Positions 27,436 through 64,000 of a DNA stretch of 64,000 bases are shown piece after piece. Every line of letters starts with the position of its first letter. Position 1 is the stretch's first letter. Location of the stretch: positions 23,462-87,461 of the forward strand of contig JAHLWP010000014.1 of NCBI GenBank assembly GCA_019057865.1. The letters are read 5' to 3'. This DNA is from Promethearchaeota archaeon (GTDB lineage: Archaea > Asgardarchaeota > Lokiarchaeia > Sigyniarchaeales > SOKP01). A program made the position numbers and the translations under genes. A model generated the notes under the pieces. That model saw only the letters and a list, made by a program, of their open reading frames with translations, did no database searches and was not told the origin of the DNA.

Positions 27436-27547
27436 AAATTTAATTTGTTATAAACATTAAATTCTTATTTATTAGTTAATTGTTAAATATTAAAAGTTTT
27501 AAATTTCAAAAATATCAAAATAATATAAGGAGATTGATGAGTTAATC

Positions 27548-28267
27548 ATGTTTGGCGGACAAGCGATGAAATATGACCGTGCTCTAACCGTATTTTCACC
27601 TGAGGGGAGATTATTTCAAGTAGAATATGCTCTAGAAGCTGTTAGAAGGGGAACCATAGCAGTTGCAGTAAAATCTGAAGAAGATGTATGCTTAGCGGCT
27701 CAAATTAAAATCCCTTCTGTATTAATGGATGCTGATTCTATTGATAAAATCTTTCAAGTTGATGAGCACATAGGTGTAGCAATCTCTGGATTACATGCTG
27801 ATTCACGTGCTTTAATTAATTATGCAAGGGTCCAAGCACAATCATTTAGATTAACGTATGATGAACCCGCTCGACTTAAAATGCTCGTAAAAACTATTGC
27901 AGATATGAAACAAATCTATACCCAATATGGAGGAATTAGACCTTTTGGATGTGCTCTTTTCTTTATTGGCATAGATGCTGCTGGAACTCAGATATTTACA
28001 ACATCTCCTAGCGGTATTTACCGTTCATTTAAAGCATATGCGCTTGGAAGTGGTGAAGCGCGTGCTCGAGAATACCTTACAGATAACTATAAGCCTGACA
28101 TGTCATTTGAGGAGATCATTGATTTATCATTAAAAGCTCTTAAAGAGTCAATTGATGAGGAAATGACGAAAGAAACTATTCGGCTTGCCTATGTTAGATC
28201 TAAAGATAAAAATTTTATAATGGCAGAGAAGTCAGAAATTGAGCAATATTTAAGCAAACTTCAATAA
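27548..28267 (+). CDS. psmA: Proteasome alpha subunit
   Basis: YDRALTVFSPEGRLFQVEYA signature; RPFG. Confidence 0.96.
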   Translation: MFGGQAMKYDRALTVFSPEGRLFQVEYALEAVRRGTIAVAVKSEEDVCLAAQIKIPSVLMDADSIDKIFQVDEHIGVAISGLHADSRALINYARVQAQSFRLTYDEPARLKMLVKTIADMKQIYTQYGGIRPFGCALFFIGIDAAGTQIFTTSPSGIYRSFKAYALGSGEARAREYLTDNYKPDMSFEEIIDLSLKALKESIDEEMTKETIRLAYVRSKDKNFIMAEKSEIEQYLSKLQ

Positions 28268-45535: not shown

Positions 45536-46545
45536 ATTTCAATCTTCTATTTGAAGCTAATTTCTTTGCGACAAAGGAGTTGGTAAAAATTTCAACAATT
45601 TATAAAATCAAATTTCAATCTTCTATTTGAAGCTAATTTCTTTGTGACCAAAATCTTGCACGTTTAACTATATTGCCTTGAATGAATTTCAATCTTCTAT
45701 TTGAAGCTAATTTCTTTGCAACATAAAATGCTTATTAAAGCTTGTGAAAATTGTTATTATATTTCAATCTTCTATTTGAAGCTAAATTCTTTGCGACATG
45801 ATTATGGACATCTATAAAATGTATAATGCTAATGCGTTTCAATCTTCTATTTGAAGTTAATTTCTTTGCGACATATAATATCATCTGATTCTGAAAAGGG
45901 GGTTAGAAAAGATTTCAATCTTCTATTTGAAGCTAATTTCTTTGCGACTATGATGATACTTTATTAGTTAGTTTAAGAATTGCTTTGTTTCAATCTTCTA
46001 TTTCAAGCTAATTTCTTTGCGACCCTAGTATTGAATGATTTAAACCATAATCTAAATCTTAATTTCAATCTTCTATTTGAAGCTAATTTCTTTGCGACCT
46101 TAAAAGATTAATTTACTTCCACGATACCACAGAATTTCAATCTTCTATCTGAAGCTAATCTCTTTGCGACGAATATCATACTCCGATTAACAAGTTGATA
46201 CAAGTATTTCAATCTTCTATTTGAAGCTAATTTCTTTGCGACTTTTACCTTTACAAATGGAACAGGAGATACAATAGGATTTCAATCTTCTATTTGAAGC
46301 TAATTTCTTTGCGACCTGTAAGTCTATTAGTAATTGGAATCGTATTACCTCTCGGTCTATTTCAATCTTCTATTTGAAGCTAATTTCTTTGCCACTTGGA
46401 ACTGCGGAAGAGATAGCATATGCTTACGAGAAATTTCAATCTTCTATTTGAAGCTAATTTCTTTGCGACAGGCGGAATTTTATATAAAGGCGATGTAGCA
46501 GAGCCTTAATTTCAATCTTCTATTTGAAGCTAATTTCTTTGCGAC
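45536..46545 (-). CRISPR. CRISPR array 1a: 14 repeats, 13 spacers
   Basis: 37-bp repeat GTCGCAAAGAAATTAGCTTCAAATAGAAGATTGAAAY on the minus strand; spacers 35-43 nt. Confidence 0.97.
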
Positions 46546-46652
46546 TCTTATTATATATAATATAATAAGCTAATTACTAATATTTATTTTTTTATCGCGA
46601 ATATAAAAGTACCATATGTAAAGAAGTATATGTCTAAATATACATTGAATAG
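46546..46652 (-). promoter_or_regulatory. Truncated CRISPR leader between arrays 1a and 1b
   Basis: 107-nt AT-rich gap starting TCTTATTATATATAATATAA, like the leader starts at 48875 and 63828. Confidence 0.6.
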
Positions 46653-48874
46653 GTTTCAATCTTCTATTTGAAGCTAATTTCTTTGCGACTGAACTTATCG
46701 AAAACACCTAAAGATTTAGCGAAACAATTTCAATCTTCTATTTGAAGCTAATTTCTTTGCGACATAACGTAACAAACATATTCAAACGTATTGCAAGATA
46801 TTGATTTCAATCTTTTATTTGAAGCTAATTTCTTTGTGACCAAAATCTTGCACGTTTAACTATATTGCCTTGAATGAATTTCAATCTTCTATTTGAAGCT
46901 AATTTCTTTGCGACATGGAAAAATCATGATACACAAACTTTCAAATTAGTATTTCATTCTTCTATTTGAAGCTAATTTCTTTGCGACACCAGAGTTTTAT
47001 GAGAGATTTCATCAAATTTCGAAATTTCAATCTTCTATTTGAAGCTAATTTCTTTTCGACTGCTCCTGGACCTGCATGTGATAATTGCCATGAATTAATA
47101 TTTCAATCTTCTATTTGAAGCTAATTTCTTTGCGACTGTTTTACCACTTGGATTAGGATATTTGGCTATAGCATTTCAATCTTCTATTTGAAGCTAATTT
47201 CTTTGCGACTACAATGCATTCTTATCGTGGATTATTCATGTGTATTTGCATTTCAATCTTTTATTTGAAGCTAATTTCTTTGCGACAAATGAATCGGTTG
47301 ATTATATATTTTGTGGTCATCTAATATTTCAATCTTCTATTTGAAGCTATTTTCTATGTATCTTGGAGACTTACTTGCTCAGAATGAATTTATCATTAAG
47401 TTTCAATCTTCTATTTGAAGCTAATTTCTTTGCGACATTAATATTTATAAGAACTCATTATGATGCATCCCATAAATTTCAATCTTCTATTTGAAGCTAA
47501 TTTCTTTGTGACGAATAATAATCTTTCATCCATGGCGGGGGAAACCTATTTTAAAATTTCAATCTTCTATTTGAAGCTAATTTCTTTGCGATTTAGCTTT
47601 AAAACGCAATCCTTACTGGTATAATAATGTGTTTCAATCTTCTATTTGAAGCTAATTTCTTTGCGATTATTAAAAAAGCATTTGGGATAAAGAAGCCTAC
47701 GGGCGGTTTCAATCTTCTATTTGAAGCTAATTTCTTTGCGATAATGTTATCAGGAAAATATGGCCTCTTAGATTCAAAGTTTCAATCTTCTATTTGAAGC
47801 TAATTTCTTTGCGATCACATGAAAAAAATAAGAGAAGCTTTAGTTCAAGATAGTTTCAATCTTCTATTTGAAGCTAATTTGGTTGCGACATTAGGAACTA
47901 AAGGAAATGCTTATGTAGTCTTTAAGAAATTTCAATCTTCTATTTGAAGCTAATTTCTTTGCGGCTGTCTTAAATCTGGTAAAACAGAGGAGGAATGTAA
48001 GATATTTCAATCTTCTATTTGAAGCTAATTTCTTTGCGACCTCATTCAAAAGTATTTATAGAAAAACCTAAATATTGTTTCAATCTTCTATTTGAAGCTA
48101 ATTTCTTTGCGACACCAGAAGCATATATATATTCACCAAGAGAAATGATATTTCAATCTTCTATTTGAAGCTAATTTCTTTGCGACGTTAATTTCTGCAA
48201 ATCAACATAGGGGAGACTTCAGTTTATTTCAATCTTCTATTTGAAGCTAATTTCTTTGCGACGACTGATGGATTCGGTACATTTCCCAGAGTTATTAAGT
48301 CATTTCAATCTTCTATTTGAAGCTAATTTCTTTGCGACTATCATAGGTTTTAATGGAGATATACGCAAACAAGATGGGTTTCAATCTTCTATTTGAAGCT
48401 ATTTTCTATGTATCATTATTCATGGGACAACGATTATATGGTTGGCTGGAATCGAGAGTTTCAATCTTCTATTTGAAGCTAATTTCTTTGCGACACAAAA
48501 TGTCACATAAAAAATATTCTATGTCTATAACATTTCAATCTTCTATTTGAAGCTAATTTCTTTGCGACAAAGATCCAATGATTTCTACTGATATTTTAAA
48601 TGTTCAGTTGTTTCAATCTTCTATTTGAAGCTAATTTCTTTGCCACTAATGACTGTCGGAGTAAGAGATATTGTTATGGTCGCTGTATTTCAATCTTCTA
48701 TTTGAAGCTAATTTCTTTGCCACAAGATTATCTGTATTTATTTTACACGATTTTGATTTAAGATTTCAATCTTCTATTTGAAGCTAATTTCTTTGCGACG
48801 AGTTTGAACCTCATACCGAAATGAATGAAGCATACGAATTTCAATCTTCTATTTGAAGCTAATTTCTTTGCGAC
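46653..48874 (-). CRISPR. CRISPR array 1b: 30 repeats, 29 spacers
   Basis: Same 37-bp repeat, with two strongly variant copies. Confidence 0.97.
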
Positions 48875-49001
48875 TCTAGTTACTATATAATATAAAAAGA
48901 AAGTATATTTAATTTTTGTTAACTTAATAAAAATTTCATATTAAAACAAAAAATTTTCTTTATTTTTGTTGTAATCTTCTCTCTTTTTGATTTATTTCTT
49001 C
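48875..49001 (-). promoter_or_regulatory. CRISPR leader (probably extends further into the AT-rich 49000-49600 region)
   Basis: AT-rich and nearly identical to 63828-64000. Confidence 0.85.
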
Positions 49002-49661: not shown

Positions 49662-50498
49662 TTATAATTTTAAAATAAAGCTTAAAATTTTGTTGTTAAT
49701 ATCGTTAAAGAGATTCTCTAATGATGTTTTTGAGTTTAAAAGCAAGTCCAATAAATTTTTCAAATGGATTCTTAATTTTTTTACGAGTTGATCTAATACT
49801 TCACTGTATAAGTTTTCAATTTTTTCTTTAGATACGGGTTCAAATCCATGAGCGATAAGGGAGCTATTTCTTAAATCACCTAAACATTTTATACTCGTTT
49901 TATCCCCATATATTTTCTCTCTTTCCGCTTCCTTTAAATCATCATAACAATATTTATTAATTTTATCTAAAATATCTAAAATATTTCTAATTTGAAATAC
50001 ATCTTTGTTTTGCTTCTTTAGATCGTCTAATTTTAGCTTAGCGATGTAAAATAATATCGTACGATTTAAAATGGTAGGATTGATATTTAAAGGATCTTTT
50101 TTAAAAGTTATATTCTGTAAAGAATTCCATAAGGTAAGTTCGTTATCTTCTAAATATTTTATTAAAGCGGGATGATTTTTTTTATTGGTTAAACTTCCCT
50201 TAATATTATCTTTAAAAAAATAATTATTAATCTCAAAAAGGATGGCTTCTTCTAATCTAAACAAGAGCGCCACTAATACCAAATAATTTTGATTTTTATG
50301 ACAGATTTCGATTTTCCAAAAGATTTCTTTTATCAAATTTAAAGGATTAGATAATTGATTTAAGTTTAGAGGTTGATATTTTATATAATCTGAACTTGGA
50401 ATTGAATTTAAGAAACTTCTTAAATATTTATGAGCAATTTCAAAATCAAAATTTTTCCTATGATGGGCATATTTTAAAAGAGAAATTAATGAATCTTT
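49662..50498 (-). pseudogene. N-terminally truncated Csm6/TIGR02710-like HEPN effector
   Basis: LRNSSLIAHGF (Rx6H HEPN) and FRLEE motifs; the frame stays open upstream of TTG 50336 to a TAG at 50499-50501 (...LLKYAHHRKNFDFEIAH...); no CARF domain seen. Confidence 0.7.
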
Positions 50499-50764
50499 CT
50501 ATTTTTGAATTTATAATAAGTTCGGATAATCTTGCTAAATATTTAGAGCTTATTTTAAATCATGTAATTTTTTATAATAAAAAAGTGATTACTGAAAAAA
50601 TATTAAATTCAGATTCTTTAATCATCGATTATAAATTTAATAAAATCTTATTTAATTATATTCCAAAAGAATCAACAGAATTTGAATTTTTAAGTCTCTT
50701 ATTAAAAAAAGGATTATTAAATTTGAGTAGAAAGGATAAAAATTCAAGAAAATATTATGAGTAA
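50396..50764 (+). CDS. Hypothetical protein or gene fragment
   Basis: 122-aa TTG-start ORF whose 5' part overlaps the HEPN remnant antisense. Confidence 0.3.
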   Translation: MELNLRNFLNIYEQFQNQNFSYDGHILKEKLMNLSIFEFIISSDNLAKYLELILNHVIFYNKKVITEKILNSDSLIIDYKFNKILFNYIPKESTEFEFLSLLLKKGLLNLSRKDKNSRKYYE

Positions 50765-50813
50765 TATTGTAAAATGATTTTTTTTATCAATAATTATAGG
50801 TGGTGTTTAAGAA

Positions 50814-51638
50814 ATGAAAGATAGTATAAAGAAAGAAAAACCACAATTTCATATTATAACTTGCGGTACATCTATATTAAGCAATTATAATTATAACCGT
50901 TCTGAAGAATCTAAAATCAATCTAGACTTTATCAAATCCTTAGACGATTCTAAACACGATTGGTTAGAAATAATAAATAAATTTTTTGAATTTCTAAAAC
51001 AAAATCCTGAGCGAAATTCTGCCGAAATTAATAGTTTAAGCTATTTTTTAAAAGAAGGTAAAGTAAAGAAGATCTACCTTATATGTACTGATACTAACGC
51101 AGGAAAATTATGTGCAAATACTTTACAAAAATATTTTCGCAATGAATTGAAAATATCTGATATAAATTTTAAAGAAGCAAGAGGATTTGGAACAGAAGAT
51201 TTTGAAAAAGGTCTATTAGAAATTAGAGATACCATATTAAGATTAATAAGAAAGCATGAAAATTCACATGAAATTTATTTAAATGCAACGGGAGGGTTTA
51301 AGCCAGAATCTGCTATGATGGTGTTGTTAGGCTCACTATATCAACTTCCTGTGTATTATCTCTATGAAACATCGCGAAAACTAGTAATGATTCCTCCTTT
51401 TCCGCTATTATATATAGAAGAGATATATATTGAGATTTTACAAAAATTAATAGATAAACCAGGTGGAATTCGTATAAATCGCGAAGTAAAGAAATTTGAA
51501 GAGGTGTATGGTGGAAAATTAAAATATTTAGAAAAAGTTGGAGCGATTGGAATAAGAAAGCGGGAAAATAGTTCGAAATCTTATTTCATAAGATCAAGCG
51601 GAAGATTTTTATACGATTTTAAAACTAAAACAAAATAA
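50814..51638 (+). CDS. CRISPR-associated APE2256-family CARF protein (Crn1-like ring nuclease candidate) with C-terminal wHTH
   Basis: TCGTS, SAEINSL, TDT..G..CA, NATGGFKPE and VYY.YE motifs. Confidence 0.85.
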   Translation: MKDSIKKEKPQFHIITCGTSILSNYNYNRSEESKINLDFIKSLDDSKHDWLEIINKFFEFLKQNPERNSAEINSLSYFLKEGKVKKIYLICTDTNAGKLCANTLQKYFRNELKISDINFKEARGFGTEDFEKGLLEIRDTILRLIRKHENSHEIYLNATGGFKPESAMMVLLGSLYQLPVYYLYETSRKLVMIPPFPLLYIEEIYIEILQKLIDKPGGIRINREVKKFEEVYGGKLKYLEKVGAIGIRKRENSSKSYFIRSSGRFLYDFKTKTK

Positions 51639-52845: not shown

Positions 52846-53811
52846 CTAGTCATTGATAAATTTCATTAAGTTAACTTGATATTTTACTTTCTTATTCCTA
52901 CATAGGCTTTTAAAATTACAATATTCACAAGATTCTGACGTATAAGCCATTTTAAATTGATTTATATCAAATTCATGGTATTTCTTATTATTTATTAGCT
53001 TACCCATATCTTTTGAAGAAATATTGATATAATCTTTAATATTACAGACATCTGAAGAAGTGAGTTTATAGTTTCTTTGAAAGTTTTTTAAGAGTTGATA
53101 TTCAATTAATCTTATTTCTGTTGGATCATCAATAGGTTTCTGGAAAGGATCAGTTGATATACTTTCTGTTAGAGCAATAGCGTAAATTCCCAGTTGCATC
53201 CGTGCATTCTCTTTTCTAAAAAAATAGACTTTCCAATCAATGATCATAGGTGGTTCATCCCTGAAATAAACGATTAAATCTGGGCGGCTAATGATATTAA
53301 ACTCTTGGAATTTATAATTGAGATTCTTTTGAGCAACTAAGACTATGTTGGAGTCTAAAAGGATTTTCATAAGCTCTGATTGGAGTAAATTTTTTAATGA
53401 TATTATTACTTGTTCCTTTATTTTTTCAACAGAGTCATTATCTAATCCCTCTGAGTTCTCTATTTCGCGTAGAGCGCAATAACTGTCACCGGCCTTCTTC
53501 TTAGTTAGCTTGGGGTCTCTATATTTCCTTAGTTTTGCGAATTCTAATTGCTTTTTCATTAACTCAGAAACAAAAGTCTCAATTTTATCAAAGGGAGGAA
53601 CATTGCTTTTATTAAATTCAGGAACCAAAAGATTTTCGATAACTTGGTCGACAATTTTCCCTCTCCAAGTATGAATGCTTCCTAATTGTTTTAAGATATA
53701 GGCTTCAAATCTATCTTTATCTTTACTATTTTTTCTTGCCATAATTTCGTAATAAAACCATTTTCTTTGGCATTTCGAAAAAATTTTAGCTTTAGATATA
53801 GACCAGTTCAT
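52846..53811 (-). CDS. PD-(D/E)XK nuclease, Cas4/AddB-like with Fe-S cysteines
   Basis: S.S....F..CQRKW.Y, RPDL, IIDWK, QL..YA and C-terminal CEYC...LC. Confidence 0.85.
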   Translation of the reverse strand: MNWSISKAKIFSKCQRKWFYYEIMARKNSKDKDRFEAYILKQLGSIHTWRGKIVDQVIENLLVPEFNKSNVPPFDKIETFVSELMKKQLEFAKLRKYRDPKLTKKKAGDSYCALREIENSEGLDNDSVEKIKEQVIISLKNLLQSELMKILLDSNIVLVAQKNLNYKFQEFNIISRPDLIVYFRDEPPMIIDWKVYFFRKENARMQLGIYAIALTESISTDPFQKPIDDPTEIRLIEYQLLKNFQRNYKLTSSDVCNIKDYINISSKDMGKLINNKKYHEFDINQFKMAYTSESCEYCNFKSLCRNKKVKYQVNLMKFIND

Positions 53812-53910
53812 TTACGCTCTCTCTTCGATTAAATTCTATAAATTTAGTTCTATCCTACATTTTTCTTTATATGAATTTGTATTTATTTTAATCTCATTTA
53901 AGGATATATG

Positions 53911-54897
53911 TTAATCTTTTAATTGCTCACGGCAGTTTATGGCGAATTGTTCGCATTCCTCCTCCTTCCATTTCGGGTGAAGATAGGTTTGCGTTAGAGA
54001 GGGGATTGGGATATATCTCTGTTTAATGATATGAGCACCCCAATTCTTAATGAGTGCCCTCCTTTTTTCTACCTCCTCAAAAGAATCCTCGAAGTTATAA
54101 AGTACAAACACGCCAATTTTCTTGCGCTGATATCCTGCTTCTTCGAAATACCTTATTGCTCTCTCGCAAGCCTCCTCTTCGTCTGCCCTGTCAAATGAAA
54201 TACGTATATCTCGAAAATTAGCTTCAAACATTAATTTAGCTATCTCCTGCGTGACTAAAGCCGCGTCCACCCCAGATAAACAGTAAGAAGCCTTCACCTT
54301 AGCCTCAATTAGTTCTGTAAGGATATTTTCGATGTACGGATTGCTGAGGAGGTTATTATCCAAGAATGAAACATTGGGTTTTACTATCTCGCTCTTAATA
54401 CTCCACTTCGGTTCGAATTTGGGTTCTAACTTATGAACATGGCAAAAAGAACACTTTCGTATGCACCCCCTGCTCGCGTGGATCACACAAAACTTACAAT
54501 CTTGTATTAAATCATAAGCAGGGATGAGTGATTCCGCTTCTTCCATCAACCCAACGTGAACTTCGTCACAACCATTCTTCTTGCAATGCTCCGGCATTAT
54601 AGAAGCATACACACCACCAACCACGACTTTCGAATCTGGGTAAAGCGTCTTGTATGTTCTCACGGAGTCCCAAACAGGCTGCCACCAATAGGTAAAGAGA
54701 GATATAATTAGCATCAGATCAGGTTTCTTCAAAGTTAGACCATCCCCCCTTACAAGTTCCACGGTGGCTCCCATTTTGCGGTACAGAGATCCCAACTTGA
54801 GAAGTCCTATAGGCAAGTATCTCTCTTTCATATAATTTTCCCAGTTCTTGGCTCGAACCTTGTAATTCCAGTTAGGCTCGACTAGAGAGACGTGCAA
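53911..54897 (-). CDS. B12-binding-type radical SAM protein
   Basis: PIGLLKLG and VGGVYAS..P.H N-domain; SRGCIRKCSFC (CxxxCxxC); LDNN. Confidence 0.85.
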   Translation of the reverse strand: MHVSLVEPNWNYKVRAKNWENYMKERYLPIGLLKLGSLYRKMGATVELVRGDGLTLKKPDLMLIISLFTYWWQPVWDSVRTYKTLYPDSKVVVGGVYASIMPEHCKKNGCDEVHVGLMEEAESLIPAYDLIQDCKFCVIHASRGCIRKCSFCHVHKLEPKFEPKWSIKSEIVKPNVSFLDNNLLSNPYIENILTELIEAKVKASYCLSGVDAALVTQEIAKLMFEANFRDIRISFDRADEEEACERAIRYFEEAGYQRKKIGVFVLYNFEDSFEEVEKRRALIKNWGAHIIKQRYIPIPSLTQTYLHPKWKEEECEQFAINCREQLKD

Positions 54898-54928
54898 GTT
54901 TCAATCACTACTAATATAAAATTACCTA

Positions 54929-55672
54929 TTATTTATCCAATTTATCTTTAATATCAGTATAATTATGTTTAACAGGACATATCACTAATCCAAGTTCAGA
55001 GATTTTAATAATTTTCTCTCTACCTTTACGTTCTTCAGTTAAATAGCCTTTTTTAACTAAATTTTTCACAATGCGGGACAAATTCGGAAGATCCCATGAT
55101 TTATTATTATCTTCACATATTTTTAACAATTTATTCAAATTAGTTGAATCAATTTGATGAGGATTATTTCGGTTAATCTCTTTATACATGATGTTTATTA
55201 ATTCCTGTCCTTTATTGCGTGGTTCTACTAAGTTAAAGAGACTATTTTTTGTAAAATCTTGTTTATTAAAGTAAAATACTTCTTTTATTTGTAGTTTTTG
55301 GATTTGTGCTGCAATATAAAGAGCTAATTTCATTTCGAAGGTACCTGAAGTAAGATTACATATAATTTCATATTTCTTGTCTTTGACATATTTTATTAAA
55401 GCACGTAGGGTGCGTATTAATTCAATAAGATCATTCTCAACATGTATTTCTATAAGTGTATATTTGATTCTTTCATTTTCTGGAAAAATTTCTTGAGATT
55501 TATTTAATAGTTCAATTTTTTCATTAATATCCTCGTAAAAATTTTTAGATTTCTGTTCACTAACCGGTGGACTAATAAATACATACCAATTAGTTTTGGG
55601 ATTTTTACGATGTGCTACATATATCCATTTATGTAATTTTCCATAGAGCATAATTTGACATTCTTTCATCAT
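54929..55672 (-). CDS. CARF-wHTH transcriptional regulator (Csa3/DUF6293-like)
   Basis: CNLTSGTFEMKLALYIAAQ CARF motif II; C-terminal LSRIVKNLVKKGYL....GREK...ISELG wHTH. Confidence 0.75.
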   Translation of the reverse strand: MMKECQIMLYGKLHKWIYVAHRKNPKTNWYVFISPPVSEQKSKNFYEDINEKIELLNKSQEIFPENERIKYTLIEIHVENDLIELIRTLRALIKYVKDKKYEIICNLTSGTFEMKLALYIAAQIQKLQIKEVFYFNKQDFTKNSLFNLVEPRNKGQELINIMYKEINRNNPHQIDSTNLNKLLKICEDNNKSWDLPNLSRIVKNLVKKGYLTEERKGREKIIKISELGLVICPVKHNYTDIKDKLDK

Positions 55673-55855: not shown

Positions 55856-55984
55856 ATGGGAAAAAATAAAATGACAAGTAAAGCTGCTAGGAGAATTCAA
55901 TCTCATGCGGATCGAACAGGTAAAAATCAAGGATTTAAATCAAGAGCCCAGAGTTCTGTGGCGAAAAATTCAAATAAAAAATAA
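55856..55984 (+). CDS. Small SMP (seed maturation protein)-like peptide, 42 aa; not in the ORF track
   Basis: MGKNKMTSKAARRIQSHADRTGKNQGFKSRAQSSVAKNSNKK; GGAGGTG Shine-Dalgarno upstream. Confidence 0.75.
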   Translation: MGKNKMTSKAARRIQSHADRTGKNQGFKSRAQSSVAKNSNKK

Positions 55985-55986
55985 AG

Positions 55987-56196
55987 ATGGTTAATGTGTG
56001 TGAAAATAATGATAAAATCGAAGTGCATCATATTATCCCCTTCTTTAAAAATAGAAAAGATCATTCAGACATTTTAATTGGTTTATACTATAGTGCTATT
56101 CATGAAGAAGTACTAAATTTACATTTTGATGAAAAATTTATAAGTAATAATTATAAAGATAAGAATAGACTAAAATCGAAATTATGGGATGTATAA
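55987..56196 (+). pseudogene. Degenerate HNH-like fragment
   Basis: VC.....IEVHHIIP...DH motif; the second half of the HNH motif is degraded. Confidence 0.45.
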
Positions 56197-56656
56197 CAAA
56201 ATGAAAATTGTTATAAATTCAATTGATTACAGTGGCTCTATTGTAGATGGGCCAGGGATTAGAACAGTTTTATTTGTACAAGGTTGCAAGCGAAGATGTG
56301 AAGATTGTCATAATCCTAGCACATGGGATATGGATGAAGGGATAAAATTTGACGTTGAGGATATTGTGGAAGATTTAAGAAAAAAATGTTTAAATAAGAA
56401 ACTCACCATATCTGGAGGCGAACCTCTTTTACAATACCCGGCGATTCTTGAACTGGTTAAAAGTTTAGATGGTTTTAATATCGTACTTTATACTGGTTTT
56501 GAATTTGATGATGTACCTAAAGAAATTTTATATTATCTCGATTATATCAAAGTTGGTAAATATATTAAAGAACTAAGAAGTACTATTATCCCTTTTATGG
56601 GTTCAAATAACCAAAAATTTATTGAATTAAGAGGTGGAAAAATTGAAATCAATTAA
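56189..56656 (+). CDS. nrdG: Anaerobic ribonucleotide reductase activating enzyme
   Basis: DGPGIRTVLFVQGCKRRCEDCHNP, SGGEP, YTG, GS.NQ. Confidence 0.93.
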   Translation: MYNKMKIVINSIDYSGSIVDGPGIRTVLFVQGCKRRCEDCHNPSTWDMDEGIKFDVEDIVEDLRKKCLNKKLTISGGEPLLQYPAILELVKSLDGFNIVLYTGFEFDDVPKEILYYLDYIKVGKYIKELRSTIIPFMGSNNQKFIELRGGKIEIN

Positions 56657-58337
56657 TTTTGAACACGCAGCTCAGCGTAAAACTTTTGTTGGGCTTGTAT
56701 ATAGTAGAGGAAGTAAAGAAATAAAAGAAACAATTCTCAACGGTTTGGAAGAAAGATTCTCAAAATTGCATAGAGAAGGCAGAATTCACATACATGATTT
56801 GGAAGCGTATGGTGAAACCTACAATTGTTTGACACCAAACATTCTAAAAGGATTCCCTTATGAAGAATATACTAATTATTCGGATTTTAAGAAAATGATA
56901 GAACTATTTAATTATTACAGACATATCATTGTTGGTTTGGGGAATGAACAATCTGGTGGAATAGCTTTTGCGAATTTTGATGAAGAAGTCGAGATTATTT
57001 ATAATAAATTAAATATCGCTAAGAATGAAATTAATTTTCAATTTCTAAGAGATTGTATTGATTCGTTCTTAAAGTGGATACATGAGGCAAGAGATCGATG
57101 TGGACAAGTACAATATTATGTTACTTTAAATCTTGGATTAGCTACGGGAGAAATCAGTAGATTTGTCACCTCGTCAGTTTTAAAATATTTTATGGCTTCG
57201 AAATATATCAGACCCAATATTATTTTTAAATTGAAAGACGGTATTAACCGTAAGAAAGGTGATAATAATTATGATTTATTTCGTATAGCAATGGAATGCA
57301 CATGTAAAAAAATGATTCCAACCTATTTTTTATGTGATTCTAACCACAATCTTAAGGTAGATCCATTTAAAATTGCACTAATGGGTTGTAGATCAAAAGT
57401 ATATCAAAACGAGTATGGTGAAGATACTACAATAGGGAGAGCTAATATTGTTTATAATACAATCAACCTTCCTAGAATTGCACTCGAAATTGATAAAAAT
57501 AACCCGAATTTAACTAAGGAAGAAAAAATCGACTTATTCAAAAAAAATTGGCTGGAAATTGCTGATGATGTTAAGGATCTTCTTTTTGATCGTTATTATA
57601 AGATTTGTAAACAAGACCCAGATGATTTTCCCCGTAATTTGCAACATAATTTAAGGATTATAGATTTAAAGAATGTAAATTCAATGGAAGAAGTGTTTAA
57701 AAATGGAACATTAGCTATTGGATTTATAGGTGTATCAGAAACAATAGAGTTGTTAACCGGGGAAGAATATTTTGCATCTGAAGAAAATCATCAGAGGGCA
57801 ATCGATCTCATAAAAATGATGAGAGATACCATTGATAAGTATAGAAAAGAATATAATATGAATTTCTCATTACTCGGAACATCGGGTGAATTTATTTCTG
57901 GTCGTTTTCCTGGCGTAGATAAGAAGTATTTCTCAAATTCTCTAATAGATAAAGGCTATTATACTAATTCATTTCATGTAGATGTTGATTCTCGACTAAA
58001 TCCTTTTGAGAAATTGAAATTTGAGGGCCCATTTCATAAATTTTGTAATGGAGGGTGTATATCATATATAGAGTTTCAATCTGCACCATTAAATAATGTT
58101 GAAGCAATTTCGGAACTAATTGAAAGCGCGATTAAATATGATGTTAATTATCTTGGATTTAATTTTCCAATGGATCGTTGCTTAGATTGTGATACAACAG
58201 GAACATTTGATGTCTGTGGAAAGTGTGGAAGCAGTAATATACTAAGAATAAGAAGGGTGTCTGGATACTTAGAAGATCTAGCATTTTTCACCCCAGGAAA
58301 AAAAGCAGAGGTTGCATATAGAAAACCAAATGTTTAA
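56634..58337 (+). CDS. nrdD: Class III (anaerobic) ribonucleoside-triphosphate reductase without ATP-cone
   Basis: IHIHDL, YNC, QSGG, MGCRS (thiyl Cys), GRAN...INLP, YYTNS.H, CxxC-CxxC and RVSGYL glycyl-radical loop; start may be TTG 56643. Confidence 0.93.
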   Translation: MEKLKSINFEHAAQRKTFVGLVYSRGSKEIKETILNGLEERFSKLHREGRIHIHDLEAYGETYNCLTPNILKGFPYEEYTNYSDFKKMIELFNYYRHIIVGLGNEQSGGIAFANFDEEVEIIYNKLNIAKNEINFQFLRDCIDSFLKWIHEARDRCGQVQYYVTLNLGLATGEISRFVTSSVLKYFMASKYIRPNIIFKLKDGINRKKGDNNYDLFRIAMECTCKKMIPTYFLCDSNHNLKVDPFKIALMGCRSKVYQNEYGEDTTIGRANIVYNTINLPRIALEIDKNNPNLTKEEKIDLFKKNWLEIADDVKDLLFDRYYKICKQDPDDFPRNLQHNLRIIDLKNVNSMEEVFKNGTLAIGFIGVSETIELLTGEEYFASEENHQRAIDLIKMMRDTIDKYRKEYNMNFSLLGTSGEFISGRFPGVDKKYFSNSLIDKGYYTNSFHVDVDSRLNPFEKLKFEGPFHKFCNGGCISYIEFQSAPLNNVEAISELIESAIKYDVNYLGFNFPMDRCLDCDTTGTFDVCGKCGSSNILRIRRVSGYLEDLAFFTPGKKAEVAYRKPNV

Positions 58338-58364
58338 AACAATTAAATTAAGGGAGGTATTGGT

Positions 58365-58946
58365 ATGCACATAGCAATTGAAGGAGTAGATGGTGTAGGA
58401 AAAACAACGGTCTGTAAGATAATTGCGGAAAAATTAAATTTCAAATTTATTGAAAAACCATTACATTATCTTTTAGATTCCGATACCGAATTTGAAAATT
58501 ATTTTAGAATTCGTGATTATGTTAATTGTCAAGGTCATAACAAGATTTTTACTTCTTGGTTTTATGGATTAGGGAATATTTTTCTTTATCATAAATTTAA
58601 AGATGAAAATATTATTACTGACAGACACCTAGTGTCCAATTTTTATTGGAGCGGTGATGAAAGTAGCCAGGCAGTTTTTGATTGCTTGATTGATTTAATT
58701 GGTAAGCCCGACTACACGTTTTTATTATATGCAAAAGAAGGAGTGGTAACAAAAAGATTAAAAAACAGAGATAGCAATGATATGGATATTATAAAATCTT
58801 CATTAATAACTGAAGCGTATATTAAGATGGAGAAATTTTTAATAGATTACGATATGAAATATAAACTTATTGATACCACAGAACTCAATGCCAATGAAGT
58901 TGCAGATCTTATTTTGAGTTATTTATCTGAGGTTGGAATAGAATAA
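58365..58946 (+). CDS. Thymidylate-kinase-family (d)NMP kinase
   Basis: IAIEGVDGVGKTT P-loop, TDR motif, PD..F.L. Confidence 0.85.
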   Translation: MHIAIEGVDGVGKTTVCKIIAEKLNFKFIEKPLHYLLDSDTEFENYFRIRDYVNCQGHNKIFTSWFYGLGNIFLYHKFKDENIITDRHLVSNFYWSGDESSQAVFDCLIDLIGKPDYTFLLYAKEGVVTKRLKNRDSNDMDIIKSSLITEAYIKMEKFLIDYDMKYKLIDTTELNANEVADLILSYLSEVGIE

Positions 58947-60721
58947 TGACAAAAGTCGATATGAAATACACCAGTTTGTTTTGGAAACTGGGATTTGTTG
59001 AAGAAACTACTGATTTATATATTAAAGAATACACTGATTCTTATCGCATAGATATAGAAGCAGAAAAGCAAATAGTAAATTATGGATTTAATAATAAAAA
59101 GACTGATGATATTCCAACCACTTTGTATGAACATAAAGATTTCGTTGTATTAGAATGTGTAAACAGGTTAATTGAAAAAGGATATAAACGTGAGGATCTA
59201 CATTTAACGGGTAATGCGGATAAACTTGAAAAACCTGACATTATAGGATATGATAAATTAAACAAATCATTGTTTGCCTTTGATTGCAAACGATGGGGCA
59301 AAGATTTTGAGGAAGAATTGGCAATTATAAAAAAAGGAAAAGGTCTATTGTTCTCATACTTCAAAAACAATAAGGAAATAAAATATTTGTGTTTATATAC
59401 TTCAAGATTGGATGGTGGTCTATTAGAATATAAAAATGCAATAATATCAACCGCAAACATAAATCATGATAATTATATATATTTCTCGGGTATATTTGAA
59501 GAAAATGTAAAGCCCTACAATGCTGTTCTTTCTCTGTCAGAACAAGAGAGGCAGAACATGTTTGATAAGATAAAGACAGAAGTTTTAAAAAATTTAGATG
59601 GTAAAGAATACATAATAGAAGATGGTGTGTTGATAAAATACCAAGGAAATAGCGAACACATTAGAATTCCAAATTCTATTAAAAATATTGGGACAGGAGC
59701 ATTTTGGAATTGTACAAGCTTAGTATCCGTAGAAATACCAAATGGAATAAAAAGTATCGGTGGAGACGCATTTTATTATTGCCATAACTTAAAATCTTTA
59801 AACATTCCGAACAGTGTTCAAACTATTGGCAATGATCCGTTTGCTGACTGTCCGTTGCTTACATTAACAAACAAGAGCCCCGATTTTATTTTAGATGATG
59901 GTGTGTTATACGATAAAACAAAAACCACTATTATACACTATCCCATTAATAATATTTCAAAAACTTTTATTATCCCAAATGGAGTTATATGTATCGGAAA
60001 ACACGCATTTTATAATTGCACCAATCTTGAAAGCATTACCGTCCCTAGCAGTGTTATATGTATAGAAAACAATGTGTTTGCAGATTGTAAAAATCTTACT
60101 TTAACTAACAACAGCCCACATTTTGTTTTGGAAAACGGAGTGTTATATAATAAAGAAAAAACTCAATTAATATCTTTAATCGATCACCAATTGGAAACTC
60201 TCGATATTCCAAGCAGTGTTCTGACAATAGGAAAAAATGTTTTTTGGAATTGCTTGAATTTAAAGAGTGTTACTATTCCTAGAAGTGTTACCCGGATAGG
60301 TTACAACCCGTTTGCCGGCTGCAATTCTTTAGTGTTAAAGAATCATAGCCCTCATTTTGCTTTAGAAAACGGAGTGTTGTACAATAAAGAAAAAACAGAG
60401 ATAATCTATTGTCCAAATACCAGCATTTCAGGAACTATTGCCATACCGAGTAGCGTTACAAGCATAGGAAGGAATTCCTTTAGCTATTGCGTGAATCTTG
60501 AAACCTTAATTGTTCCAGCTGATGTAACCATTATTGAGAGGGGTGCATTTAGTGGTTGCATAAATTTATCATCTATCACAATCCCGGATAGCGTAAAATT
60601 CATTGGTAAATGGGCATTTGGTCATTGTAAAAACTTAAAAACTATTAAAATCTCAAAAAATACTGTAATAGAAGATTACGCTTTTGCTGAATGCCAAGTA
60701 AAAATAACTCTTATATCTTAA
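58946..60721 (+). CDS. Fusion of a restriction-type PD-(D/E)XK nuclease domain to BspA-type leucine-rich repeats
   Basis: N-term FVVLECVNRL.EKGY...PDI...FDCK..G...LFSY...LCLYTS resembles the nuclease domain of fused type I/IIG R-M enzymes; C-term IP.SV..IG..AF..C..L repeats; no signal peptide. Confidence 0.8.
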   Translation: MTKVDMKYTSLFWKLGFVEETTDLYIKEYTDSYRIDIEAEKQIVNYGFNNKKTDDIPTTLYEHKDFVVLECVNRLIEKGYKREDLHLTGNADKLEKPDIIGYDKLNKSLFAFDCKRWGKDFEEELAIIKKGKGLLFSYFKNNKEIKYLCLYTSRLDGGLLEYKNAIISTANINHDNYIYFSGIFEENVKPYNAVLSLSEQERQNMFDKIKTEVLKNLDGKEYIIEDGVLIKYQGNSEHIRIPNSIKNIGTGAFWNCTSLVSVEIPNGIKSIGGDAFYYCHNLKSLNIPNSVQTIGNDPFADCPLLTLTNKSPDFILDDGVLYDKTKTTIIHYPINNISKTFIIPNGVICIGKHAFYNCTNLESITVPSSVICIENNVFADCKNLTLTNNSPHFVLENGVLYNKEKTQLISLIDHQLETLDIPSSVLTIGKNVFWNCLNLKSVTIPRSVTRIGYNPFAGCNSLVLKNHSPHFALENGVLYNKEKTEIIYCPNTSISGTIAIPSSVTSIGRNSFSYCVNLETLIVPADVTIIERGAFSGCINLSSITIPDSVKFIGKWAFGHCKNLKTIKISKNTVIEDYAFAECQVKITLIS

Positions 60722-60785
60722 GTTCGGATATACGAAATTAATATTATAAATAATAAATTTTTATGAATCAAGGTTAGGAGATTAT

Positions 60786-61898
60786 ATGAACTCTAATATT
60801 TCAAAGAAGAAGAAGGAAAATTTATTGAAAAAAATTTCAATTCTTAAAGATTTCATAAGTAAAAACACCAATGACCCTACGTTAATAGAATACCTGCTGG
60901 AGATCAAGAAAGAAATTAATGAAAAAAGATATGGGCTTCTATTTGAAGAACATATAGAAGAGATTATCAGCGCGAATAACATAATATTATCTGAAGTAAA
61001 AGAATTATCTATAGACGTAGGGGGGAATGAAAATATACTAATAGAGGGTGAAAATTTAGCAGCATTAAAGGTTTTAGAACTAGAATATCGAGGTAAAATT
61101 GACGTAATCTGCATTGATCCACCATACAATACTGGAAATAAAACTTTGAAATATAATGACTACGATTACATTGATTCCGATGATGAATATAGCCACAGTA
61201 AATGGCTCAGTTTTATGGAGAAGAGGTTAAACATTGCAAAAGAATTGTTAGTTTCAAATGGGGTAATTTTTGTTAATATTGATGAGACTCAAATAGGTTG
61301 CTTGATTTTATTGTGCGAAGAAATTTTTGGGGAGCAAAATGTAGATGTATTAATCTGGCCTAAAACAGACCCAAAATATGACAAGAATAGAGTGGAAAAA
61401 CCGATTTTTAACGTGAAAATGGCACATGAATATGTAGTAATGTGTTATAAGAACAAGACTAATACACATTTTAATAAGATGATAAGACGTCCAAATAATA
61501 GCGATTTTAAAACACCAGAACAACCATTTTATATGGAATCCATACTAAATGAGATTGGGACAACTTCATTTGCAAAAGATGAATTGCACGAAATTTTTGG
61601 CAGTAGGGATATAAATGTCACTCCAAAACCACGAAAAATGATCAAAGAATTTGTGAGAGTAGCTGCGGGACCAAATGCGATTATTTTAGATTTTTTTGCA
61701 GGCTCAGGTACGACCGGTCATGCAGTAATGGATTTGAATAAAGAAGATGGAGGAAAAAGAAAATTTATTTTGGTAACTAATAATGAGAATAACATTTGTA
61801 TAGATATTACTTATGAGCGACTTAAGAGAGTAATTTATAAAGATAATTATACAGAGAATCTAAAATACTTTAAGATTGAATCAATACAAAGACTTTAA
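60786..61898 (+). CDS. Beta-class DNA methyltransferase (type III Mod-like) with short TRD
   Basis: YGL.FE.H.E, IEGENL, IDPPYNTG, HSKWLSFM..RL, PKP and LDFFAGSGTTGHAV. Confidence 0.9.
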   Translation: MNSNISKKKKENLLKKISILKDFISKNTNDPTLIEYLLEIKKEINEKRYGLLFEEHIEEIISANNIILSEVKELSIDVGGNENILIEGENLAALKVLELEYRGKIDVICIDPPYNTGNKTLKYNDYDYIDSDDEYSHSKWLSFMEKRLNIAKELLVSNGVIFVNIDETQIGCLILLCEEIFGEQNVDVLIWPKTDPKYDKNRVEKPIFNVKMAHEYVVMCYKNKTNTHFNKMIRRPNNSDFKTPEQPFYMESILNEIGTTSFAKDELHEIFGSRDINVTPKPRKMIKEFVRVAAGPNAIILDFFAGSGTTGHAVMDLNKEDGGKRKFILVTNNENNICIDITYERLKRVIYKDNYTENLKYFKIESIQRL

Positions 61899-61918
61899 AG
61901 TTTTAGAGGTACCCATTC

Positions 61919-62671
61919 ATGCCTGGTATTTTTGCAATCTCAGATCCCCACCTTCCCACTCAAACCCAAATAAGCAAATATGGAGCACCATCAGATTATT
62001 TTCAGCAAGTTTCAAATCATTTAGAACAAATTAATCCAGATGTTTTATTGATTGCGGGAGATTTAGTTTGGGGATCTGATATTTCCGAAATTCAAGCAGA
62101 ATTAGATCTTCTCCGAGAACTTCCGGGAAAATTAAAGTTTTTTATTGAAGGAAATCATGATATATGGGTAGATAGACTGAGTACATCCTACTCTGAAGCA
62201 CAACAAAAGATGTATGAACGTTTTTCAACTTCCAAGTTCTTTTATATAGGAGGAAGGGCTTCTATTGTTTCAATAAATTCGATCAAGGTAGGGATTTGCG
62301 GGGCGCGTGGGTTTGCATTTGATCCATATGAGAAGCCTATAGAAGATGAATTACTTTTTCGTAAAAATGAATTAGAATCATTAGATAAATCTTTATTTGA
62401 GCTTAAAAACATAATTAAAACCGAACATACAACAATTAATTTGTGTTTAATGCATTATCCTCCAACTGTTTCAGTCTTTAAAAACCATCGAATTGGAGAT
62501 GAAGAGTTTATAAAACACATTTACGATACAGAAATAATCAACAAGGTAATATTTGGTCATGTGCATATAGATGAAATTTTACGGTTATATACAAAAAAAG
62601 AAAAAATTGAACTATATTGTGCGACAATCGATCGAAATAATTATAATGCAATTAAAGTTTTTGATATTTAA
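61919..62671 (+). CDS. Calcineurin-like metallophosphoesterase
   Basis: SDPH, AGD, GNHD, HYPP, GHVH. Confidence 0.9.
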   Translation: MPGIFAISDPHLPTQTQISKYGAPSDYFQQVSNHLEQINPDVLLIAGDLVWGSDISEIQAELDLLRELPGKLKFFIEGNHDIWVDRLSTSYSEAQQKMYERFSTSKFFYIGGRASIVSINSIKVGICGARGFAFDPYEKPIEDELLFRKNELESLDKSLFELKNIIKTEHTTINLCLMHYPPTVSVFKNHRIGDEEFIKHIYDTEIINKVIFGHVHIDEILRLYTKKEKIELYCATIDRNNYNAIKVFDI

Positions 62672-62867: not shown

Positions 62868-63044
62868 TTATTCTTGATATTCTTCCATAACCCTTTTTGC
62901 TACTTGATCTTTTGGTTCTATGCGCAAAGCTTGTTCAGCATAGTTTTTTGCCAATTCATGCTCTCCTAAGAACTTATATGTTAAAGCTAGATGACTTAGT
63001 GTAGAATTACTTTTTGGATCTTTCTCTAATGCTTTAATATATGC
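62868..63044 (-). pseudogene. C-terminal fragment of a TPR protein cut off by CRISPR array 2
   Basis: AYIKALEKDPKSNSTLSHLALTYKFLGEHELAKNYAEQALRIEPKDQVAKRVMEEYQE*; no start, with an in-frame TGA inside the adjacent repeat. Confidence 0.75.
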
Positions 63045-63827
63045 ATTTCAATCTTCTATTTGAAGTTAATTTCTTTGCGACTTGTTTAGCAAGACAAATG
63101 AAGCAAATATTAAGTTTACATTTCAATCTTCTATTTGAAGCTAATTTCTTTGCGACGGGATAAATATGAGAAATGGCAAAAGAGGGCTGAGAAAATTTCA
63201 ATCTTCTATTTGAAGCTAATTTCTTTGCGACGGTGTCACAATTCACAAGGTTATGGGAAACGATCTTAAATTTCAATCTTCTATTTGAAGCTAATTTCTT
63301 TGCGATATATTAATGCTTCCAATGTTAATGCTACTGCTGTATTATTTCAATCTTCTATTTGAAGCTAATTTCTTTGCGACTATAAAGATAGATAAATATA
63401 TTTATCCTTTCATAGATACATTTCAATCTTCTATTTGAAGCTAATTTCTTTGCGACGTTGGCACAATTCTTGCACATGGGGTAAAAAGAAAACATTTCAA
63501 TCTTCTATTTGAAGCTAATTTCTTTGCGACAAAGAGAAATGGCAAAAGAAGAGGGCTGAGAAATGAAATTTCAATCTTCTATTTGAAGCTAATTTCTTTG
63601 CGACATTATTTCTCATGGGATTATCCATGTGATATGAATCTATTTCAATCTTCTATTTGAAGCTAATTTCTTTGCGACAATATGCAGTGTGAGTGTTGTG
63701 GATTAGAGGGTTTTCAATTTCAATCTTCTATTTGAAGCTAATTTCTTTGCGACCTCAGATCAATTGTACTATTGCTAAAGGATATCCTGTATTTCAATCT
63801 TCTATTTGAAGCTAATTTCTTTGCGAC
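63045..63827 (-). CRISPR. CRISPR array 2: 11 repeats, 10 spacers
   Basis: Same 37-bp repeat as array 1. Confidence 0.97.
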
Positions 63828-64000
63828 TTATATTACTATATAATATAATATGAAAAGAAAATATATTTAATTTTTGTTAACTTAATAAAAATTTCATATT
63901 AAAACAAAAAATTTTCAATATTTTTTTCCAAAATTATTGTTTTATCAAAAAATTTTCTTTATTTTTGTTGTAATCTTCTCTCTTTTTGATTTATTTCTTC
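63828..64000 (-). promoter_or_regulatory. CRISPR leader (runs off the window edge)
   Basis: Near-identical to 48875-49001 apart from a 41-nt insertion. Confidence 0.85.

Follow-up and report, generated by a model that had tools for sequence, protein, structure and literature searches.

Ribonucleotide reductases (RNRs) are seen as enzymes of housekeeping or of viral replication. Here, an RNR is reported as an obligatory part of a small mobile operon, together with a leucine-rich repeat (LRR) protein derived from a restriction enzyme. The operon, hereafter called the cassette, lies in a 64,000-nucleotide stretch of DNA from a Promethearchaeota archaeon (GenBank assembly GCA_019057865.1, contig JAHLWP010000014.1, positions 23,462 to 87,461 of the forward strand); the whole stretch is called the window, and coordinates are positions within it. 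The window cassette is the Asgard form of a chromosomal accessory operon that moves horizontally and whose invariant core has four genes, encoding the class III reductase NrdD, its activase NrdG, a thymidylate kinase (Tmk)-like deoxynucleoside monophosphate (dNMP) kinase, and the LRR protein, called dN-LRR below. A DNA methyltransferase (MTase) gene and a metallophosphoesterase gene follow the core in the window.

Several described systems resemble parts of the cassette. Class III nrdD-nrdG operons, represented by the NrdD structures of phage T4 (PDB 1h78) and Prevotella copri (8p23), share with it the glycyl-radical loop, the MGCRS thiyl cysteine, the bottom-face cysteine, an asparagine, the zinc ribbon and a small radical-SAM activase encoded alongside, and the ATP-cone is missing in the cassette enzyme as it is in T4. 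The cassette NrdD nevertheless falls in a separate clade, only ~25-30% identical to T4-type and host NrdDs, and the cassette is always an extra copy and always continues with the Tmk-like kinase and dN-LRR, as no described nrd operon does. Type IIG and IIB restriction-modification (R-M) enzymes have a nuclease domain that is homologous in sequence and fold to the N-terminus of dN-LRR, and fused forms of the cassette run nuclease domain, spacer and MTase like a IIG polypeptide. However, the ExK motif is lost in 84 of 85 cassette proteins, the LRR solenoid replaces the helical and target-recognition domain (TRD) parts, the cassette MTase is beta-class and Mod-like whereas theirs is gamma-class, and there is no S subunit. 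The Mod proteins of type III R-M systems align with both halves of the MTase core, including its DPPY and FxGxG motifs, but the cassette lacks the ~100-residue TRD and the Res helicase-nuclease, and its MTase is fused or adjacent to the LRR protein.

Prokaryotic viperin (pVip) systems that include a kinase likewise pair a radical-chemistry nucleotide enzyme with a nucleoside monophosphate kinase, and the cassette kinase matches the viperin-associated kinase VakA. The cassette radical-SAM protein, by contrast, is an NrdG activase that scores 17.1 bits against the viperin model NF038283 (cut-off 180) and matches the PADLOC pVip model over no more than 70 residues (3.8e-4); the enzyme acting on nucleotides is a glycyl-radical reductase whose RNR site is canonical, and a chain-terminator product is not indicated. 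In T4, deoxynucleoside triphosphate (dNTP) synthesis brings together RNR, dNMP kinase, dCTPase, and DNA glucosyl- and methyltransferases. The cassette likewise combines an RNR, a dNMP kinase, an optional phosphohydrolase and a DNA-modifying transferase (methyl or glycosyl), but as one compact chromosomal operon in cells, without a ThyA-like base modifier, with a putative LRR scaffold protein added, and under host-type sensory regulators. Finally, accessory modules of type III CRISPR (clustered regularly interspaced short palindromic repeats) systems under CARF regulators of the Csa3 type resemble this locus, where a CARF winged helix-turn-helix (wHTH) regulator is divergently paired with the cassette among Csm6-HEPN/CARF genes between CRISPR arrays; no cassette protein, however, carries a CARF or SAVED sensor, and the bacterial versions are without any CRISPR link.

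No model in PADLOC 2.0 matches the cassette NrdD, and the matches of the other cassette proteins are confined to models of generic R-M, kinase or candidate (PDC) components. A full-text literature search, which included the Heliusvirales paper, found no published description of the cassette. The cassette is apparently undescribed, and on this point a first-pass annotation, which had proposed a new nucleotide-centred defence system from the DNA letters and their open reading frames (ORFs), is borne out by the PADLOC system models and the literature alike. The six genes are:

56189 to 56656, + strand: nrdG, radical-SAM activase (Fer4_12 2.8e-28; Radical_SAM; TIGR02491 NrdG 1e-31; phrog_626)
56634 to 58337, + strand: nrdD, compact class III RNR of 567 aa (PF13597, 343 bits)
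58365 to 58946, + strand: thymidylate-kinase-like dNMP kinase (PF02223, 58 bits; phrog_761)
58946 to 60721, + strand: LRR protein (dN-LRR), with an N-terminal restriction-nuclease-fold domain (residues ~1-190) and a BspA-type LRR_5 solenoid (~226-591)
60786 to 61898, + strand: methyltransferase, type III Mod-like beta-class N6/N4 DNA MTase core (PF01555, 5e-36)
61919 to 62671, + strand: metallophosphoesterase (PF00149, 1e-14), a lineage-specific accessory

The ORFs, domains and junction sequences agree with the six genes, overlaps, gaps and Shine-Dalgarno-like motifs as first annotated. Read directly, the sequence has nrdG overlapping nrdD and a 27-nt gap carrying GGGAGGT between nrdD and the kinase gene. 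The stop of the kinase gene and the start of the LRR gene share TAATG, with translational coupling, and the junctions before the MTase gene (64 nt) and the phosphoesterase gene (20 nt) each contain a Shine-Dalgarno-like, GGAGG-like motif.

A horizontally mobile operon with a four-gene core

From an LRR protein alignment, 81 loci were fetched, 80 from species-representative genomes and one from an IMG/VR contig. As far as the contigs extend, nrdG, nrdD, the kinase gene and the LRR gene stand in this order on one strand in all 81, across ~20 phyla; all five genes, including the methylase, are present in 53. The nrdG gene itself adjoins nrdD in 67 loci, the remainder being mostly cut by contig ends. 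Starting instead from NrdD homologues (85 to 56% identity), the kinase gene follows nrdD in eight of eight contexts; in seven it is followed by the LRR gene, and in five the methylase gene comes after that. Since all 81 loci, each fetched independently, repeat the same gene order, the association of these genes is far beyond chance. The first-pass annotation had staked its proposal on a conserved gene order, and that order is what the loci display.

Archaeal carriers are found among Promethearchaeota, Heimdallarchaeota, Methanocellaceae, Methanosarcinaceae, Methanomassiliicoccales, Methanocorpusculum, Bathyarchaeia and Nitrososphaerales. Bacterial carriers include many gut Clostridia and Bacilli, Mollicutes-like lineages, Treponema, Brachyspira, Bacteroidales and Fibrobacteraceae, as well as Planctomycetota, Myxococcota, Poribacteria, Cloacimonadota and Parasutterella. 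Retention of the intact operon across this range, in both prokaryotic domains, argues for strong selection on its function.

The genome contains other RNRs, as the annotation had suggested checking: an NrdD of 711 aa on contig C75 (468 bits), to which the cassette NrdD is ~25% identical, and another, bearing an ATP-cone, on C54. This genome yielded no RNR of class I or II. A second RNR, either a longer NrdD or a class I/II enzyme, was also present in five of five other carriers tested (Acholeplasmataceae, Methanomassiliicoccales, Borkfalkiaceae, Treponema and Bacillales genomes). In a tree with the carriers' own long NrdDs and the T4-like NrdD as comparators, the cassette NrdDs form one clade (SH-aLRT 99, stem length 0.94), so that the copy in the window stands apart from housekeeping NrdDs. 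A role for it as the sole or housekeeping RNR was rejected on the basis of the other NrdDs in the genome and the separate clade.

These observations bear on the simplest alternative, namely that housekeeping nucleotide genes have come to lie by coincidence beside an orphan methylase and a surface-type LRR protein. Each of the enzyme families is common singly, and BspA-type LRR proteins are usually surface proteins. Against this stand the identical order of the genes across phyla, their linkage by fusions and translational coupling, the second RNR in every carrier tested, the distinct NrdD clade, and the window LRR protein sequence, in which no signal peptide was found. Coincidence is contradicted by the conservation data to the point of exclusion, and we regard its probability as negligible.

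The distribution of the cassette does not follow taxonomy. Within the cassette NrdD clade, copies are mixed by habitat, with sediment bacteria inside the archaeal branch and rumen methanogens grouped with gut bacteria; the Asgard copies form one subclade. Among 151 genomes of the order, seven gave a cassette match; at genus level, the search covered 51 other genomes, none with a full-length match. With its conserved synteny, patchy occurrence and a phylogeny discordant with taxonomy, the cassette is a mobile accessory operon. In one locus binned as Patescibacteria (L046, JANBVM010000024.1), the cassette and its CARF regulator share 76-82% identity with their Asgard counterparts, and the contig is probably Asgard and wrongly binned.

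Mobility raises the question of whether the cassette is a selfish or element-derived establishment kit, providing dNTPs for element replication (as do T4 nrdDG and gene 1) and broad self-methylation against restriction, with a dead nuclease-LRR protein as decoy or adaptor. Such a kit would account for an NrdD without an ATP-cone, as in T4; all cassette parts have PHROG counterparts, and TRD-less, non-specific MTases are typical of phage anti-restriction. The human-gut Heliusvirales phage PV036423 carries the same five genes in the same order beside two serine recombinases, its NrdD falling within Clostridia in the tree; one IMG/VR contig carries the cassette as well, and serine recombinases occur in several cassette flanks. 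The full-length LRR protein was, however, found in only one of 50,697 phage records, one IMG/VR locus and none of 72,556 plasmids, compared with at least 127 loci in species-representative genomes. The flanks are without phage structural or conjugation genes and often consist of housekeeping genes, and host-type ligand-sensing regulators accompany the cassette. An establishment kit is on balance quite unlikely, and the case for typical prophage or plasmid cargo is weak given the single phage record, the single IMG/VR contig, the lack of plasmid matches and the flanks free of phage structural genes.

Recombination was also detected within the cassette. In comparison with L030, the closest related locus, nrdG-nrdD and the methylase and phosphoesterase genes are 96-100% identical in nucleotides, but identity drops to 63-88% at about 58150 to 60500, which comprises the kinase gene and most of the LRR gene. 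Synonymous divergence (dS) is 1.08 and 0.71 for kinase and LRR gene, whereas the neighbouring genes have 0.04 and 0.01, and the ratio of nonsynonymous to synonymous divergence (dN/dS) in the two genes is 0.13-0.23. This combination of high dS and low dN/dS points to allele replacement: by sequence comparison, a diverged kinase-LRR allele has been swapped in as one unit by recombination. Positive selection on the two genes was rejected on the same values.

Cassette proteins and alternative output arms

The cassette NrdD scores 324.8 bits against TIGR02487, whose curated cut-off is 326.35, and its Pfam score is well over the cut-off of that family. No match to the ATP-cone (PF03477) was obtained in the protein, and the NRDD model begins at residue 20. 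The glycyl-radical loop RRVSGYL aligns with QRITGYL and KRTCGYL of solved NrdDs, and the motif is retained in at least 97% of 74 cassette copies. The bottom-face cysteine (YNCLT), the thiyl-cysteine finger loop MGCRS and GRxN are conserved across the 74 copies, the C-terminal CxxC...CxxC zinc site is present as CLDC...CGKC, and the catalytic residues are retained in alignments to PDB 8p23, 9d3x and T4 1h78. The enzyme is thus the compact NrdD first described, with catalytic cysteine and glycyl loop and without an ATP-cone. The combination of MGCRS, YNCLT and GRxN corresponds to the formate-type (NrdD1) site of the Escherichia coli and T4 enzymes. With the catalytic residues conserved across the 74 copies, an ordinary formate-type reductase is the default reading of the cassette NrdD, and the canonical site lends no support to the earlier suggestion of an unusual or signal deoxynucleotide as product.

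The other NrdD genes of the genome look unusual. On C75 (L001), the gene for the 711-aa protein is followed by an opposite-strand ORF with intein-splicing and LAGLIDADG domains. The Pfam match of the ATP-cone-bearing NrdD on C54 (L003) spans positions 8-503 only, and an 87-aa ORF on C28 (L004) matches the glycyl-radical end that it is missing.

The kinase has a P-loop GxDGxGKT, a TDRH motif and lid residues R131 and R135 that are invariant (28 to 83 orthologues). It scores 51.6 bits against the Tmk equivalog TIGR00041, under the cut-off of 83.25, and matches the PADLOC models VakA and PDC-M51B at about 1e-12. In Tmk, the thymine-contact motif is of the S-x-x-A-Y-Q type; the corresponding base-contact motif reads SNxxWxG in the cassette kinase. 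A canonical Tmk is encoded elsewhere in this genome (contig C41, 152.8 bits). One natural fusion of the kinase with the LRR protein was found (P0121).

The MTase matches the PADLOC model MTase_III at 1e-76, in two stretches. Its halves align to Mbo45V (PDB 7dsu) and EcoP15I Mod (4zcf) at 1e-31 to 5e-40, with the TRD of ~100 aa skipped, and the motifs DPPY, FxGxG and TPKP are conserved. Based upon these alignments, the methylase is assigned as a type III Mod core that lacks a target-recognition domain; the cassette was found to contain no Res or helicase gene, either in the window or in any of the related loci. The LRR protein and the MTase are fused in ORFs of ~800 aa in at least nine bacterial loci (L083, L089, L095, L096, L098, L101, L105, L106 and L110), and these natural fusions are Rosetta-stone evidence that the two proteins work together. 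With no TRD and with the LRR protein as its fusion partner, the MTase is not the independent self-marking enzyme first proposed.

The phosphoesterase has weak matches to PdeM, the DS9 anti-phage phosphoesterase and PDC-S10. Orthologues occur only in the closest Asgard relatives (L030, L046 and the P0022 contig), and the protein is accordingly classed, from its distribution, as a lineage-specific accessory and not a core component; the reset function once assigned to it loses its footing with this distribution. Unrelated Metallophos, HAD or NUDIX genes take other positions in other lineages, and a non-orthologous phosphohydrolase gene lies between nrdD and the kinase gene in a number of loci (NUDIX in L009, HAD in L053, a small Metallophos in ~20 bacterial loci). 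A second variant of the cassette is without the methylase and has instead genes for a GT4-Sel1-LRR_5 glycosyltransferase, a Metallophos protein and an AAA_14-LRR_5 protein. This variant was seen in Asgard L009, Fibrobacteraceae L057 and Acholeplasmataceae L066, and in L066 the glycosyltransferase-Sel1-LRR protein is fused to the Metallophos domain.

The variable genes recall a pathway to modified deoxynucleotides following T-even logic, in which NrdD would lead to dNTPs, NUDIX, HAD or Metallophos enzymes would return these to dNMPs, the base would be modified, and the kinase would raise the product to the diphosphate for incorporation into DNA, with the MTase or glycosyltransferase as the modifying or finishing enzyme. 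The position of the phosphohydrolase gene exactly between nrdD and the kinase gene in many loci would be explained in this way, as would the kinase base-contact motif unlike that of Tmk and the alternation of MTase and glycosyltransferase as output enzymes. However, the cassette encodes no enzyme, ThyA-like or other, for modification at the nucleotide level, and the phosphohydrolase is absent from many cassettes and from the nrdD-kinase position in the window. The MTase is moreover Mod-type and fused to a domain derived from a DNA enzyme, which points to polymer DNA as its substrate. Such a pathway is very unlikely.

The LRR_5 region of dN-LRR was matched at 1.5e-71, and the N-terminus matches the PADLOC model REase_MTase_IIG (PDLC03624) at 8e-29. 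An AlphaFold2 model of the N-terminal domain (~190 residues) had a predicted local distance difference test score (pLDDT) of 90.8, and its best PDB match was the nuclease domain in the RM subunit of the type IIB enzyme BsaXI (8w2p; E 7.5e-6, Foldseek probability 1.0). The N-terminal domain is derived from a type IIG/IIB restriction-enzyme nuclease. An exhaustive profile search with this domain returned 601 representative clusters, including many proteins of ~1130-1360 aa with the domain at their N-terminus. The catalytic residues E...D...ECK are present in 20 of 20 type IIG relatives, whereas in the cassette LRR proteins the third motif is degenerate and the E-D-(D/E)xK set is missing in 84 of 85. 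Nuclease catalysis is therefore not a property of the family, which reads as a restriction-nuclease fold with catalysis generally lost. The window copy is the only one of the 85 to retain E70, D98 and D113-x-K115 (a 74%-identical relative has DxR), and it may or may not cut DNA. The fold of the annotated nuclease-LRR protein thus stands, but an active LRR-gated nuclease as general effector was rejected for the family and is conceivable only for the window copy.

A nucleotide-centred anti-phage defence is essentially what was first envisaged. In such a scheme, the LRR protein would sense a viral component while RNR and kinase would make a signal or poison deoxynucleotide or skew dNTP pools; in the Asgard copy, the intact nuclease motif would add DNA cleavage and the MTase would shield self DNA. 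Of the cassette genes, the LRR gene is the one least conserved across loci, and its fast divergence and recombination are as expected of a sensor. The resemblance of the kinase to viperin-associated kinases and the E-D-DxK set of the window copy would also fit, and in the Kongming system deoxynucleotides have reportedly been found to serve as immune signals. On the other side, the core is without a conserved toxic effector, the nuclease being dead in nearly all copies; the ordinary formate-type NrdD site does not indicate an unusual product; and the kinase-LRR tract is under purifying selection, with allele replacement.

Regulators, genomic setting and possible function

Four further features of the window frame the cassette:

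54929 to 55672, - strand: CARF and winged-helix (Csa3-like) regulator, divergent from the cassette (Pfam CARF_Card1 and DUF6293_C wHTH)
55856 to 56196, + strand: two small ORFs (42 aa and 69 aa) in the regulator-nrdG spacer, the 69-aa ORF with an HNH-like CxxxxxxxxHH motif
45536 to 48967, unstranded: CRISPR array 1 (45536-48795) and leader (48885-48967), left flank of a ~14-kb block
63044 to 63925, unstranded: CRISPR array 2 (63044-63843) and leader (63843-63925), right flank

The CARF-wHTH regulator matches the PADLOC CARF and Csa3 models. Homologues are encoded divergently upstream of nrdG in L030 (96% identity), L046 (76%) and L009 (29%, E 4e-17). The L009 cassette lies in a different context, among housekeeping genes, which argues that the regulator travels with the Asgard cassette and is not a mere neighbour. 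The spacer between regulator and nrdG measures 516 nt in the window and 141-355 nt in L009, L046 and L030. The first-pass annotation had started the unit at 55856, at the two small ORFs, but these are not conserved: no homologue was found in any related locus, including L030, whose NrdD is 96% identical, and they were rejected as operon members. They are probably not part of the unit.

The cassette sits in the ~14-kb block between the two CRISPR arrays, where it had first been placed. Both arrays share one 37-nt repeat, and each is followed by a leader, the two leader copies being 95% identical; array 2 coincides with the contig end. Inside the block are a Csm6-type HEPN gene, a CARF gene, a Cas4-like nuclease gene and the CARF-wHTH regulator gene. 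No cas10 or other effector cas gene was recognised within the window. GC content is ~0.30 in the block, like its surroundings, and ~0.28 in the window; a compositional island was ruled out.

Bacterial cassettes are accompanied by XRE regulators and divergent WYL-WCX regulators. In 28 bacterial loci (e.g. L039:3266-3739) a protein of ~157 aa is encoded directly upstream of nrdG on the same strand; it has conserved KCGHVG, RVKHDHKD and DPYLxC motifs, falls in no Pfam family and is not part of the Asgard version. The 69-aa ORF of the window was considered as its homologue and rejected as unrelated. Recurrent DNA-processing neighbours of the cassettes are AP_endonuc_2, Smr and a DEDDh exonuclease, and archaeal loci other than the window adjoin MmeI-like, GmrSD, RE_endonuc/ResIII and NucS genes. 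An uncontrolled Pfam tally of 150 flanking ORFs gave scattered Fic and AbiEii and many unrelated housekeeping genes, and no phage structural genes.

A conflict- or defence-related accessory module fits the patchiness and horizontal spread of the cassette, its two R-M-derived genes, the CARF-wHTH, WYL and XRE regulators, and the CRISPR/CARF island; from these features, a defence role is plausible. The same features speak for the anti-phage scheme outlined above, together with the R-M and nuclease genes beside other archaeal loci. As regards a defence-island setting, the CRISPR/CARF island here and several archaeal loci beside R-M or defence genes fit, but bacterial flanks are neither obviously enriched in defence genes nor clear cases of such islands. 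NrdD is not represented in any PADLOC system model, and the anti-phage scheme is, taken as a whole, rather unlikely.

The reading that we tentatively prefer, at somewhat less than an even chance, is that the cassette would supply dNTPs without ATP-cone control, coupled to DNA-directed modification through an LRR scaffold or targeting subunit of restriction-enzyme derivation, under danger-sensing regulators. NrdD, NrdG and the kinase would constitute an autonomous anaerobic dNTP supply that escapes the on/off control exerted by dATP and ATP through the ATP-cone. The dN-LRR protein, as a targeting or scaffold subunit rather than a killing nuclease, might tether this supply to DNA and to an exchangeable DNA-modifying output arm. 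That arm would be the TRD-less Mod-type MTase with the metallophosphoesterase here, and elsewhere the GT4-Sel1-LRR glycosyltransferase with a metallophosphoesterase and the AAA_14-LRR ATPase. Expression could be set by a regulator responding to danger signals, CARF-wHTH in the window and WYL or XRE in bacteria; in the case of CARF-wHTH, a type III CRISPR system might provide the signal in the form of cyclic oligoadenylate. In conflicts with viruses or mobile elements, DNA would then be protected or restored by modification while precursors were provided for replication and repair.

A dNTP supply coupled to DNA modification accounts for the core and its fusions, for the alternating methylase and glycosyltransferase, and for the accessories of DNA-repair type. 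It echoes eukaryotes, in which RNR and thymidylate kinase are co-recruited to DNA damage sites. Several points weigh against it. LRRs mostly bind proteins and not DNA, and we know of no logic by which DNA methylation would need an RNR. The two halves of the cassette might be co-selected without mechanistic coupling. The phosphohydrolase between nrdD and the kinase in many loci would fit nucleotide modification as well as or better than dNTP supply, and the bacterial flanks are mostly housekeeping, with defence or toxin-antitoxin genes only scattered.

Stated more broadly, the cassette may be a nucleotide-centred immune or survival module of Asgards, methanogens and anaerobic bacteria. A danger regulator (here CARF with cyclic oligoadenylate) would act on an RNR and kinase free of ATP-cone control and, by way of an exchangeable LRR recognition protein, lead to DNA marking or rebuilding or to an antiviral nucleotide. 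Such a module is possible but doubtful. If it were real, an RNR would be a dedicated immune component, and a cytoplasmic LRR protein would be a prokaryotic specificity subunit with a defined role. An immune or protective function would represent a new host-virus logic in which DNA precursors are supplied or redirected, whereas known dNTP-based defences deplete them, and it would link Asgard type III CRISPR signalling through CARF to nucleotide metabolism. A TRD-less Mod methylase combined with an LRR targeting subunit might represent a novel route to directed DNA methylation. Among the carriers, at least Brachyspira catarrhinii Z12 is a cultured strain, and the question is thus open to bench work.

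Other observations in the window

Within array 1, a repeat-spacer-repeat unit is duplicated (45612-45724 and 46804-46916, 98% identity), and the array is broken at about 46586-46653. Just past array 1, positions 49662-51638 encode a Csm6-type HEPN protein of 224 aa with no detectable CARF domain and a separate Cas_APE2256/CARF protein of 274 aa. On the minus strand at 52846-55672 lies a co-oriented trio consisting of the CARF-wHTH regulator, a 328-aa protein and a 321-aa PD-(D/E)XK nuclease. The nuclease matches the PADLOC model Aga_Cas4-like_Nuc at 3.5e-87, and the adjoining 328-aa protein has a weak match to a B12-binding domain. In L030, genes for the CARF-wHTH regulator and the 328-aa protein likewise stand beside the cassette.

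Farther from the cassette, a Ras-family small GTPase gene adjoins a proteasome alpha subunit gene at 26872-28267; both are eukaryote-like, Asgard-marking proteins. Very large ORFs of 1508 and 1295 aa (28928-33454 and 36310-40197), essentially without Pfam matches, flank genes for a CDC48-N-domain protein and a TPR protein. The window opens with a giant ORF (1-7587, at least 2528 aa, 5' end open) that contains a 384-nt tandem repeat in three copies at 520-1679.

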